Shown in pieces: positions 33,880 through 53,533 of a DNA stretch of 64,000 nt. The stretch is from assembly GCA_964549615.1 (NCBI GenBank), contig CAZJVP010000051.1, positions 58,740 through 122,739 of the forward strand, in the 5' to 3' direction. The notes below the pieces were generated by a model that was not told the DNA's origin, made no database searches, and was given only the letters and a program-made list of their open reading frames with translations. Made by a program: the position numbers and the translations under genes. The first letter of the stretch is position 1. Every line of letters starts with the position of its first letter. This stretch comes from an uncultured Thermococci archaeon. GTDB lineage: Archaea > CAYQAE01 > CAYVLA01.

Positions 33880-34925
33880 CAGAAGTTTCCCTCCCTCTCC
33901 TTATGAATGTTCCGGCCGGTGGAGAAAGAAGAAGTAGAAAAGGTGCTCATGTGCAGGGACTATGCCCAGGGACACACAACCTACGACTGTCCCAAGTGTG
34001 GCCGCATCACTATCGTACCCTTCACGTGTAAGAGCCGCCTATCCTCGGCCTGTGGGAAGAAACACACCGACAGATGGGCAGACAAGGTCAGCGCCGAGCT
34101 TCTGGAGGTAGCCCATCGGCACATGGTCTTCACCACACCAGACAAGCTCTGGCCCCACCTGGAACAACACCGATGGCTACTCAAGGACGTCATGGACACG
34201 GTCAAAACAGCGCTGGAGGAGGTGGTAAACCACAGGTGGAAAGCCCTCCAGATAGTCCCAGGGATAATCAAGTCCTCCACACCTATGGCAGGGAATTCAA
34301 GTTCAACCCCCACATCCAGGCCATAGTGACGGACGGGGACTCAGAGAAAGGGACTAGTACGGCGGGGAGAGGCGGATGGATGTCAACTTCTTTCCCTACG
34401 AGAAGCTGAGAAAGGTGTGGCAGCACCAGCTGGTCACAGGGATCAGGGAGAAACTCCCCCACGACAAGGAGCTGCACAGCCTCCTGGACCAGCTCTACAG
34501 GGAGAAGGAGAACGGATTCTACGTCTACGCCAAGAGAAGGATCGAAGGCAAGGAGAAGGAGTTCATCTGCAGATACGTCGCAAGGTACGTCCGCCACCCA
34601 GCCATAGCTGAAACCCGAATAAACAGCTACAACCCGCACACCAGGATGGTCGAGTTCTGGTACAGACACGACGACGACACGGAAACAGTGAGCATGCACG
34701 TCTACGAGCTCATAGGCAAGCTCATAGGACACATACCACCTAGACAGTTCAAGACGATAAGGTACTACGGCCTGTACGCCAGGAACAAGAAGAGAAAGAT
34801 CCAAGATGTGCTGATTGTAGCTCACATTCTCATGAATGTTTCGCTACGAGTAGCGCCACGAGCGACGGGCGAGAAAAGTATAAATGGGGCCCTGTCTAAA
34901 GGCAAGACGGAGGGAGAATGATGCA
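33880..34925 (+). mobile_element. IS91-family-like transposase remnant (zinc-binding domain + Y2-transposase domain) split over three reading frames
   Basis: Frame 1 (33907-34326): DCPKCGRITIVPFTCKSRLSSACGKKH zinc domain; frame 3 (~34250-34330): VLHTYGREFKFNPHIQAIVTDGD (HxH motif); frame 2 (34376-34921): ...KTIRYYGLYARNKKRK (catalytic Y motif); at least 2 frameshifts. Confidence 0.5.
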
Positions 34926-36192: not shown

Positions 36193-36345
36193 GGCAGCCG
36201 CAGCCGATCAGAGCAGTCTCAAGCCCCTCATCATTCGCAGCCATCCCAGCACGATCGACAGCACATGTGTGCCCAAGGCGGCATCGGCCATCTCGGCTTA
36301 AAGCCGTCTCTTTACCCTCTCCTTGCTGAGACTTGTCCAGATCGC

Positions 36346-36665
36346 TCATTGTGACTGTGACTGTGACTGTGACTGTGACTGTGACTGTGACTGTGACGGT
36401 ATCGTGGCGGATTGTGCCCAATCCGACAGTCGTGTATGGTACCTCATGGGCACAAGTGGTAGCGAATCCCCCACCAATGCAGCCCTCACGTGGAGGCCCG
36501 GGAAGGCGATGACCAGCTGCTTGCTCCCGCTGAATGCGTCCCTGATCACTAGTTCATCTTGGAGGCATCGATCTTCGCATCGACGAAGCTCCTGACGACC
36601 TTGCTGCCCTTGAACCCGGAGAGGCGCTCGGACACGATTCTAAGCAGGTGTCCTTCCATGGCCAT
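36346..36665 (-). pseudogene. Fpg/Nei fragment (copy B), N-terminal ~70 codons only, with stop + frameshift
   Basis: Minus strand reads MEGHLLRIVSERLSGFKGSKVVRSFVDAKIDASKMN*, then in another frame IRDAFSGSKQLVIAFPGLHVRAALVGDS, homologous to IREIFSRGKQLIIAFPDFHVRIHF of intact copy; homology ends at the microsatellite. Confidence 0.45.
36351..36397. repeat. Hexanucleotide microsatellite (GTGACT)x7.8
   Basis: Read directly: gtgactgtgactgtgactgtgactgtgactgtgactgtgactgtgac. Confidence 0.9.
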
Positions 36666-49384: not shown

Positions 49385-49468
49385 GGCGCACGGGCCTTGG
49401 CACGGGTTGACCTCTTGGCACGGGTTGACCTCTTGGCACGGGTTGACCTCTTGGCACGAGTTGACCCC
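49385..49468. repeat. 18-bp tandem repeat (TTGGCACGGGTTGACCTC) x4 plus partial leading copy, in 600-bp divergent intergenic region
   Basis: Read directly 49397-49468; last unit variant ttggcacgagttgacccc. Confidence 0.85.
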
Positions 49469-49764
49469 ATAAACGCAAAGCCAAGCCGGTCCAATCTTCT
49501 TCAAGTTGGACGACGCTTTGGCCGGCGATTTCATACTCTTCTTCTGGCAGGGCGTCTACGATTTCTTCCGCCTGAGGGTCCCAGAGGCACCAAGCTCAAG
49601 GTCGAGGGGATTCGGTGGCCCACGGGTCGGCCAGAGATCAGTCCCGTTCCGCAATTGGCCAAAATTCTGTTTCTGGGCCGGATATCTCGCACATCAATCC
49701 TATTTGAAGCTTTTCTAATTATGCATAGAAAGAGTTTTGAGGTCCCTATGTTTTCTATGGTTGG

Positions 49765-50178
49765 TTGGAAAAGATGGGGAAAGCCGAGAGGAAGGTGCTG
49801 ATCAAGTACGACTCGAAGGGGGTGGGCCCGGACTTTTGGCAGAAGCTCTATGGCTACTCCAAAGGCAAGTACCGTTACCCCGGACTTCTGGACGATGTGC
49901 CCGGAGCTGTGAGGATGGCCAAGGGGCTCATTGCGGTTCCGGAGGTGCAGGCGGAGAGGATCAAACGCTTCCTAAGAGAACAGGGCGCTACGTTTGAGGA
50001 GCAGGGGACGGTGGCACCGGCAATCGAGGCTCCGGGGCTTCTCCGCTGGGATCTCGCCCGGCACGTCCTTCACGAGAGGCTGGAAGGCTTGGGGGAGGAG
50101 ATGGACAGATTGGGCCCCTTCATCAAGGCCGTTTCGACAAGGGACGCCCTTGAGGACTTGGAGAGGTATGGCTACTGA
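49765..50178 (+). CDS. Uncharacterised 137-aa protein, candidate partner of downstream PIN toxin
   Basis: AT-rich region with possible promoter upstream; stop overlaps PIN start (ATGGCTACTGA). Confidence 0.4.
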   Translation: MEKMGKAERKVLIKYDSKGVGPDFWQKLYGYSKGKYRYPGLLDDVPGAVRMAKGLIAVPEVQAERIKRFLREQGATFEEQGTVAPAIEAPGLLRWDLARHVLHERLEGLGEEMDRLGPFIKAVSTRDALEDLERYGY

Positions 50179-50677
50179 GGTCGTGCTCGATACCAGCTAC
50201 CTGCTGGCCTGGCACAGGGAGAACGATAGGCTTCATCCCAGGGCCGAGAAGATCCAGGAGAGCCTTGCGAGGGCAAAGCCGGTTCGCATCATCCTTGATT
50301 GCGTTTACTCCGAACTGATCGCCGTCCTGGCTAGAACAAGGGTCAGGGAGGAGGGAAAGGCACGGGAATTCCTGGAGGAGGAAAGGAAGCTGAGGCAGGT
50401 CTACTGGCCTAGGCTTGTCTGGATGACGTATATTGGAGGTAAAGACCTCATAAAGCGTGCCCTGGATGTGACGAGGGAGGCCGCCGAGAAATACGGGGTC
50501 GGGATCTCGCCCAACGACGCTATGCTCCTGATCTTCTGCCGGGAGAGGCACGTCCCGTTTCTGGTGAGCTTCGATAGAAGCCTTGGGCAGGTTGAGACGG
50601 TTGAGGGTAAGAAGTCGGAGGTCACGGTCGTGGACGATTCCAACAGGGAGGTTTTGCTAAGGCCAGGGAGTGTATGA
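50168..50677 (+). CDS. PIN-domain protein (VapC-like toxin)
   Basis: MATEVVLDTSYLLAW... ; ORF track frame opens at 49994 but GGAGAGGT SD and ATG at 50168. Confidence 0.55.
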   Translation: MATEVVLDTSYLLAWHRENDRLHPRAEKIQESLARAKPVRIILDCVYSELIAVLARTRVREEGKAREFLEEERKLRQVYWPRLVWMTYIGGKDLIKRALDVTREAAEKYGVGISPNDAMLLIFCRERHVPFLVSFDRSLGQVETVEGKKSEVTVVDDSNREVLLRPGSV

Positions 50678-52381: not shown

Positions 52382-52655
52382 GGTCGGCAGAGGGAATGTC
52401 CAGGACTTTTCAATGTAACAGTTCCTCGTCTCGACAAAACGAGATGCATGGTCCAGTGCTCTCGTCCAGCCTCGTCGGTCTCCGACAGGGTGGACTTTCT
52501 GTACCTGGCGACATGTGCCTTTCGCTGTGGTAAGGTCCCCTGAAGAGGGTGGGAATCCAGCACAGCCGGCGTGCAGGAATCTACGAACCGGTCAGACAAC
52601 CCGTCACACAGACCGACAAGAAGGAGCATTCGGTGATCATTCATCTTGGGCCTAG

Positions 52656-52729
52656 AGCCCCGGGCGGGATTCGGACCCGCGACCTCCTGCTTACCAAGCA
52701 GGCGCCATAGCCGACTAAGCCACCGGGGC
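52656..52729 (-). tRNA. tRNA-Thr: tRNA-Thr (anticodon GGU), no encoded CCA
   Basis: Minus strand GCCCCGGTGGCTTAGTCGGCTATGGCGCCTGCTTGGTAAGCAGGAGGTCGCGGGTCCGAATCCCGCCCGGGGCT folds as a cloverleaf: 7-bp acceptor, anticodon loop TTGGTAA, T-loop TCCGAAT (C at position 55). Confidence 0.8.
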
Positions 52730-53533
52730 ACACCTGGCTATGCCGTCAAGAAGCGTCTTTCTAAGGGCAAGTGCCAGTTCCAGCCCCCTTCCGGATGCGT
52801 CTAAAAACTCTTTTGCCCTGAGCAGCGAATCGCCCTCGACCCGGAAGCGTACATGAGGATACTCGATTTCCCATAGTATCAAGTTCTCAGGGGGTGCAGG
52901 CTTGAGGGCCAAATGCGTTCGGCCAGCAAGCGCGTCCCGGACTCTGCTCTCCTCAAGACGGTTTGTGGCGACGAGTTCGATCGCGGAGACGATCTTGCGC
53001 ACCTGCGCCCAGAGGAATCCTTTGGCTCGGAAGTACAGCCGAGGAGGATTCGTCCTCTCGACGTGGATTTCCTCGATCTCCCTGACCGTCGCACGTTGGG
53101 AGGGCCGGCTAAACTGGGCGAAGTCATGTTCGCCCAAGAATATTCTGCAGGCGGATTCGAGTGCCGACACATCAACATGGGGGTTGTGGAAGAGGTAAAG
53201 GTAGGTTTTCGACGTCGCATGCGTCCGCGGGCTAAAGCTGTCGGGGACGTCGGCCCACGCCCAGGCGAAGATGTCACGGGGGAGCTTCGAGTTCAGCCTC
53301 TTGACGATCGCCTTTGCCGGGTCCATGGGGCGAAAGGCTACGACCTGGCCCAAGGCGCTGACGCCCCGGTCGGTCCTGCCCGCCGAGGCAAACTCCGATT
53401 TGCGTGGGTCAAGGATCAATCCGCAGTCCTTCAGTGCACGGATGACGCAGCCCTCAACCGTCGATCTGTCCGGCTGCCGCTGATAGCCATAGTAGTTCTG
53501 ACCGACGTAGCCAAACTTCACCGCAACCTTCAT
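52715..53533 (-). CDS. truA: tRNA pseudouridine(38-40) synthase TruA/Pus-type
   Basis: KVAVKFGYVGQNYYGYQRQP...AGRTDRGVSALGQVVAF (catalytic Asp motif). Confidence 0.6.
   Translation of the reverse strand: MKVAVKFGYVGQNYYGYQRQPDRSTVEGCVIRALKDCGLILDPRKSEFASAGRTDRGVSALGQVVAFRPMDPAKAIVKRLNSKLPRDIFAWAWADVPDSFSPRTHATSKTYLYLFHNPHVDVSALESACRIFLGEHDFAQFSRPSQRATVREIEEIHVERTNPPRLYFRAKGFLWAQVRKIVSAIELVATNRLEESRVRDALAGRTHLALKPAPPENLILWEIEYPHVRFRVEGDSLLRAKEFLDASGRGLELALALRKTLLDGIARCAPVA

Follow-up and report, generated by a model that had tools for sequence, protein, structure and literature searches.

The stretch of DNA analysed here (the window: 64,000 nucleotides (nt) of contig CAZJVP010000051.1, positions 58,740 to 122,739, assembly GCA_964549615.1, from an uncultured Thermococci archaeon) carries a two-gene cassette on its forward strand. 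A small antitoxin-like gene (49774..50178; 134 codons and a stop) is followed by a gene for a PIN-domain protein (50168..50677; ATG start, 169 codons and a stop), which we regard as a candidate VapC-like toxin. A first reading made from the letters alone (the sequence-only reading) had noted that the stop of the upstream open reading frame (ORF) overlaps the PIN start, and this is correct: the PIN start codon and the stop codon of the upstream gene lie within an 11-nt overlap, ATGGCTACTGA (50168..50178, forward strand). The same reading described the upstream protein as one of 137 amino acids (aa). The ORF itself is genuine, as set out below, but the length needs correction. Since the public gene calls are of 134 aa, the homologues align from the corresponding methionine and the alternative TTG start at 49765 lies inside the second of two conserved palindromes, translation most likely starts at the ATG at 49774 (134 aa) and not at TTG 49765 (137 aa). 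No second copy of the cassette was found within the window by tblastn, an Rfam scan returned nothing at the cassette, and neither the upstream-protein family nor its locus tags were mentioned in any paper found in our literature searches.

The downstream protein (MATEVVLDTSYLL...) had been called a PIN protein, and the profile searches agree, with a match to Pfam PF01850 (PIN) at an E value of 9.3e-12 and 46.1 bits against a cut-off of 23.6. The catalytic acids are kept: D8, E49, D117 and D136 are invariant in the alignment of the PIN subfamily (A4), and by this alignment they are the canonical acidic quartet of VapC-like PIN domains. The VapC model TIGR00028 matches the protein weakly, the segment from E49 to D117 is longer than usual and contains an insert, and there is a conserved C-terminal extension. 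Sequence searches identified no close relative of solved structure.

By searching 5.8 billion proteins with a word-indexed method we found nine full-length homologues of the upstream protein with 59–99% identity, one of them, with the annotation "hypothetical", from the candidate division MSBL1 archaeon SCGC-AAA261F19. When 1.84 billion representatives were searched exhaustively with HMMER, 12 matches were obtained in all, and one distant full-length member (P0011) was added; two others among these matches, the TPR protein P0013 and the repeat protein P0019, are false positives caused by their repeats. Working from the PIN side, three distant PIN proteins (49–57% identity) are each preceded by a protein of 131–135 aa which aligns with that of the window over the full length (35–47% identity). 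Where synonymous sites are not saturated, the ratio of nonsynonymous to synonymous substitution (dN/dS) is 0.12–0.45 for the upstream gene and 0.13–0.40 for the PIN gene, and both genes are under purifying selection. The pairwise identities of the two proteins are correlated (r = 0.74). A spurious ORF or a wrong reading frame is ruled out by the homologues, the dN/dS values and the identical public gene calls.

By its own account the sequence-only reading would fall if the upstream ORF were not conserved with the PIN gene in other genomes, and this is not what we find. The pair was examined in the window, in a Hadarchaeota metagenome-assembled genome (MAG; L001-3 and L016), in MSBL1 (L004-6) and in L008, L017/18, L019/20, L021/22 and L023-25, among which seven loci are distinct (window, L001, L004, L008, L017, L019 and L021). 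It is present in all seven, with the upstream protein encoded directly 5' of a PIN gene of the same subfamily, at identities of 35–99% for the upstream protein and down to 49% for the PIN protein. The overlap is of 11 nt in four of the seven (window, L001, L004 and L017), as it is in L023, and is called as 29–35 nt in L008, L019 and L021. In public collections the PIN subfamily amounts to 22 clusters and the upstream family to about a dozen. The cassette family is very rare, and it is confined to archaea of the Hadarchaeota/MSBL1 type; when GTDB genomes were scanned, the PIN subfamily turned up in a single one, the Hadarchaeota MAG.

Three parts can be distinguished in the upstream protein: an N-terminal domain (residues 1–82; 49774..50019, forward strand), a variable linker (residues 83–94; 50020..50055, forward strand) and a C-terminal tail (residues 95–134; 50056..50175, forward strand). 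The tail is the part that can be related to known antitoxins. It appears to consist of an amphipathic helix followed by the segment R123-D-A-L-E-D-L-E-R131-Y-G-Y, and is a candidate PIN-binding and neutralising segment. An AlphaFold2 model of the single chain, built with the nine-sequence alignment, shows a low-confidence helix at residues 96–120 and then a short segment at residues 125–132; without its partner the tail is thus modelled with low confidence or as disordered. L113, R123, A125, D128, G133 and Y134 are invariant across all tails. R131 is present in nine of 11 sequences, and the two arginines are eight residues apart and flanked by acidic residues. The VapB proteins of Caulobacter crescentus, Rickettsia felis and Shigella flexneri carry a pseudo-palindromic groove motif with two arginines eight residues apart and acidic residues beside them; in these proteins the preceding helix packs against the side of VapC, and the active sites are entered by the arginines (PMC5389673). 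The R123-D...E-R131 segment matches this published motif, and the window protein seems to end in a toxin-binding tail of the classical VapB kind.

The same tail also occurs behind a different head. The metagenomic protein P0010 (137 aa) has a SpoVT/AbrB domain at residues 16–53 (PF04014; 28.3 bits against a cut-off of 24.7) and then carries LGDLGEEMDRLGPFMRTGSTRDALEDVDRYGY, a tail with 57% identity to that of the window protein across 43 residues. P0010/P0058-60 (JGI 3300068091/92) is like the window protein in its tail and in its total length of 126–137 aa, and differs from it in having the SpoVT/AbrB head and in being encoded by a solo gene (L007 162-575; L026 699-1079). This AbrB-tail protein may be an orphan antitoxin that acts in trans.

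The N-terminal domain had been described as having no ribbon-helix-helix (RHH), AbrB or Phd signature, and our searches bear this out, as the upstream protein has zero matches at E<=1 in Pfam, NCBIfam, PADLOC and PHROGs. In a survey of the PIN superfamily the partners of PIN proteins were RHH (29%), AbrB (24%), Phd/YefM (the Phd class; 22%), helix-turn-helix (HTH; 16%) and UPF0175 proteins (PMC5499597). The N-terminal domain falls into none of these classes, and the recognised DNA-binding domain of a VapBC antitoxin was not found. AlphaFold2 models the domain confidently, with predicted local distance difference test (pLDDT) values of 80–93 at residues 7–80 and with elements in the order strand, helix, hairpin, hairpin, helix, strand; the arrangement is a ferredoxin-like beta-alpha-beta-beta-(alpha)-beta-beta-alpha-beta. 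The linker is predicted to be disordered (pLDDT <50 at residues 84–92), is poorly conserved and varies in length in the alignments. The domain is basic, with an isoelectric point (pI) of 9.6 compared to 5.1 for the tail, and F21, G27 and G37 are its sole residues invariant throughout the family. A basic hairpin is conserved (SKGKYRY in the window protein, KGRG in the tandem forms described below) and is a candidate DNA contact. Foldseek returned nothing at E<0.001 for the domain, the top match having an E value of 0.19 and Cas2, HMA, PII and Lrp structures being intermixed, and sequence-profile searches of the PDB with the domain (A3) and the tail (A7) gave noise only at E<=10. The N-terminal domain is thus predicted with good confidence to be ferredoxin-like in fold, belongs to no Pfam family and lacks a specific structural relative, and we regard it as a candidate dimerisation and DNA-binding head.

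Two operator-like palindromes precede the cassette. The first, TTTCTAATTATGCATAGAAA (49712..49731), is a perfect palindrome of the form TTTCTA-N8-TAGAAA at about −62 from the start codon; the second, TTTCTATGGTTGGTTGGAAA (49752..49771), has one mismatch, lies 40 nt after the first and ends 2 nt before the ATG at 49774. The motif has two matches in the whole window, both at the cassette, against 0.02 expected. An upstream-region alignment and a script located two copies, at about −62 and about −20 and 40–44 nt apart, in seven of the seven distinct loci, with the remaining intergenic sequence not conserved. Between the two sites lies an AT-rich, TATA-like box, which reads tttatata, tttaaata, ataaata or tttataa in the AT-richer loci. 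By their position the palindromes bracket the presumed TATA box and B recognition element (BRE) and cover the likely transcription start. Archaeal repressors typically act by such a placement.

The N-terminal domain is not restricted to the cassette. Sequence profiles also detect it in stand-alone proteins of 80–115 aa (P0014, P0016-18 and P0032/33) and, as tandem duplicates, in proteins of about 160 aa from Woesearchaeota and relatives (P0020-P0028). The profile A3 links these proteins to the N-terminal domain at E values of 1e-18 to 1e-43, and they, too, belong to no Pfam family. A model of P0027 has the same predicted fold (pLDDT 91.8). These proteins of other archaea are unlike the window protein in having neither a VapB-like tail nor a PIN partner; they share with it the domain, the predicted fold and repeated palindromes directly 5' of their own genes. 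Upstream of the tandem gene of one Woesearchaeota locus (L012 2815-2998 and 3001-4306) there are four copies of GTTAACTTACTTAAC, the last of which ends 3 nt before the ATG, and upstream of that of another (L015 2907-2976 and 3001-4360) there are two copies of TGTTAAGTTAGTTAACA; in both cases about zero copies are expected.

The genes around these distant relatives offer some further observations. The tandem genes overlap by 11 nt a gene for a protein of 275–292 aa, in which an N-terminal coiled coil and a single transmembrane segment are combined with a secreted domain that is rich in Thr and Asn and belongs to no Pfam family; the pair may consist of a regulator and its target. The stand-alone protein P0014 (97 aa) is encoded beside genes for ParG/RHH, a 261-aa protein that we could not assign, TFIIB, HTH_17 and AAA proteins (L009 2441-4331), which suggests a mobile element, an archaeal plasmid or virus.

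The neighbourhoods of the cassette are unrelated to one another, the flanking genes differing from locus to locus. In the window these are GATase1-like and PhoPQ-related genes, in the Hadarchaeota MAG genes for TrmB, a phosphodiesterase and a sulfatase, in MSBL1 genes for AsnC and haem synthesis, in L019 genes for thioredoxin and Thi4, and in L021 a gene for HypF. In L017 (83-3699) the cassette lies between two AbrB-PIN pairs and forms with them an island of three pairs that directly adjoins an IS110-family transposase. Varied flanks together with such an island beside IS110 are a pattern typical of mobile toxin–antitoxin (TA) cassettes. We also note that in the Hadarchaeota MAG a second, unrelated PIN gene of the PIN_2 family (PF10130, 1.1e-19) lies about 0.6 kb downstream of the cassette (L001 5468-6097, reverse strand), with a 71-aa upstream partner that belongs to no family.

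We consider it probable that the cassette is a VapBC-type, type II TA module of an uncultured archaeon related to Hadarchaeota/MSBL1, with an antitoxin that carries a new head domain. A recognised antitoxin DNA-binding domain is missing while the other features of VapBC that can be checked in a sequence are present, and it is for this reason that we describe the system as VapBC-like with a new head. The sequence-only reading had proposed a TA pair with possibly a novel class of antitoxin, or else a different PIN-associated module. The comparative evidence supports the former, the antitoxin having a VapB-like tail and a new N-terminal portion of about 82 residues; the latter is not borne out, since the larger head domain and the linker account for the extra size of the antitoxin.

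In the mechanism we propose, the PIN protein (169 aa) would be a Mg2+-dependent ribonuclease toxin and the 134-aa upstream protein its modular antitoxin. The acidic tail (about residues 95–134) would wrap around a PIN dimer, its helix packing against the side of the toxin and the R123-D...E-R131 segment lying in the groove, such that an arginine of the tail could reach the acidic active site and switch off the nuclease. The basic N-terminal domain (residues 1–82) would take the place of the AbrB, RHH, Phd or HTH head of other VapB proteins and would dimerise, and dimers at the ends of the complex could bind both TTTCTA-N8-TAGAAA palindromes, allowing the complex to repress its own promoter. 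Both genes would be read from a single short-leader transcript, the overlap coupling translation of the PIN gene to termination on the antitoxin gene. Upon loss of the antitoxin the ribonuclease would be set free.

The weakest link in this scheme is DNA binding by the N-terminal domain, which, taken alone, we favour only slightly. The main argument for it is that the domain travels with its own operators. One step further, we see an even balance for and against the broader proposal that the N-terminal 80 or so residues represent a new family of sequence-specific, ferredoxin-like DNA-binding domains. In Woesearchaeota and other archaea such a domain would be an autoregulator, acting either on its own or in tandem as a pseudo-dimer. 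In Hadarchaeota/MSBL1 it would have been exchanged with AbrB on a shared VapB tail and so recruited to bind the operator as the head of a PIN antitoxin.

Several observations weigh against the VapBC-type interpretation or parts of it. The predicted fold of the N-terminal domain is generic, being matched with similar scores by ACT, the NikR C-domain, the Lrp RAM domain, PII and HMA. Many ferredoxin-like domains of this kind bind ligands or mediate oligomerisation and do not bind DNA. On the side of the tail, R131 is replaced by methionine in P0007 and P0009, so that the second arginine is not obligatory. No PIN gene is present on the 1.6-kb or the 4.4-kb contig of the AbrB-tail protein, where the solo gene converges with one for a radical SAM/SPASM protein; a classical VapB with this tail has therefore yet to be seen beside a PIN gene. 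The TATA-like box is weak in the window (gagttttgagg), and the whole family is tiny (22 PIN and about 12 antitoxin clusters) among billions of proteins.

The generic fold gives its main rival to the proposed DNA-binding head, namely that tail and toxin act as we suggest and the N-terminal domain is a sensor or oligomerisation module, similar to ACT, RAM, the NikR C-domain or PII, that binds a small molecule or a protein and controls the release or stability of the antitoxin, with the palindromes being read by another factor. We regard this as unlikely. Nothing else in the protein is a candidate for binding DNA, and yet the palindromes accompany the cassette where neighbourhoods are unrelated and hosts have diverged, and tandem genes made up of the N-terminal domain alone also have repeated palindromes of their own immediately upstream. 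Moreover, the domain is basic and occupies the position that AbrB has in P0010, and we found in it neither a family-profile match to the ligand-binding ACT, RAM or NikR C-domains nor their conserved ligand residues; F21, G27 and G37, the only invariant positions, do not amount to a conserved ligand-binding motif. Less likely again is a reading of the N-terminal domain as a degenerate nuclease of the Cas2/VapD type, with the upstream protein as a second effector. Cas2 structures do occur among the Foldseek matches, but dozens of unrelated ferredoxin-like folds match just as well. The aspartate at the end of strand 1, which is catalytic in Cas2, is not conserved (valine in P0007, glutamate, asparagine or glutamine in others and serine in the tandem forms), and no sequence similarity to a solved Cas2 or VapD was found even at E<=10. 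On these three grounds we reject this identity as highly improbable.

The remaining alternative concerns the PIN protein, which could be a housekeeping or defence nuclease for RNA processing, with the upstream protein serving it alone, as transcription factor or as chaperone subunit; growth would then not be inhibited, nor would there be a labile antitoxin. Many PIN proteins are indeed not toxins (PMC5499597). The PIN protein also exceeds a minimal VapC in length, with its insert and C-terminal extension, the cassette in the window sits amid ordinary metabolic genes with marks of mobile elements absent nearby, and the PADLOC search was without a match. Against this, five features of the cassette are those of VapBC: a small gene upstream, its overlap with the PIN gene, the arginine-bearing tail held in common with an AbrB protein, the palindromes over the promoter and a patchy distribution in varied contexts, among them a TA island beside IS110. 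A non-toxic PIN protein seems to us slightly more doubtful still than a sensory N-terminal domain, and a VapBC-type module remains the interpretation that we prefer.

Some other features of the window were recorded. In the gap of about 600 nt between the GATase1-like gene and the cassette there is a perfect tandem repeat of an 18-nt unit, CTTGGCACGGGTTGACCT, with 3.9 copies (49396-49467). It lies about 300 nt upstream of the candidate operators, and all four matches to the unit in the window are found there, against 0.08 expected. An IS91-type transposase at 33907-34921 is spread over two ORFs, with the Zn_Tnp_IS91 domain (1.3e-20) in one and the C-terminal portion of Y2_Tnp (2.6e-21, profile positions 58–181) in the other; this is probably a frameshifted or decayed copy. 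At about 36330-36400, in a gene-poor stretch, an ORF which translates as CDCDCDCDCDCD reflects a short dinucleotide/hexanucleotide microsatellite (TGCGAC-like). The sole RNA gene that the Rfam scan found in the window is a tRNA-Thr(GGT) (52655-52729, reverse strand), directly downstream of an ORF for a TruA-type pseudouridine synthase (52715-53533, reverse strand), with a nominal overlap of 15 nt with the longest form of that ORF.

Known antitoxins are built from a small, catalogued set of DNA-binding heads (RHH, AbrB, Phd and HTH) and from tails that are specific for the toxin. One classical VapB-like tail on two different heads is a clean natural case of head swapping, and the conserved operator-like palindromes suggest that the new head, which is described in no database, is a new archaeal DNA-binding domain. 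If so, a fold class would be added to the catalogues of antitoxins and of archaeal transcription factors, and a defined protein–operator pair (TTTCTA-N8-TAGAAA) would become available for structural study. The annotation of TA systems would also improve in poorly known archaea, where the partner reads "hypothetical" and the PIN gene seems orphaned. With so rare a family, and a cassette that on the whole follows standard VapBC logic, the impact would be specialist rather than broad.

The systems to which the cassette is best compared are VapBC modules with an AbrB-type VapB, such as C. crescentus VapBC1, R. felis VapBC2 and the S. flexneri VapBC, and the archaeal VapBC of Sulfolobus. With these it shares a PIN domain with four acidic residues, a small overlapping upstream gene, a two-part antitoxin in which the head is followed by a helix and an extended segment with two arginines, and palindromes in the promoter. 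It departs from them in its head of about 82 residues with a predicted ferredoxin-like fold and no Pfam family, in an antitoxin of about twice the usual length, in an overlap of 11 nt in place of the common 1 or 4 nt, and in a PIN protein with an internal insert and a C-terminal extension. Compared with the ferredoxin-like domains of known function (the NikR C-domain, ACT, Lrp RAM and Cas2/VapD), the N-terminal domain shows no sequence similarity and no conserved metal, ligand or catalytic residues, and it is set apart from them by extra beta-hairpins with conserved basic residues.
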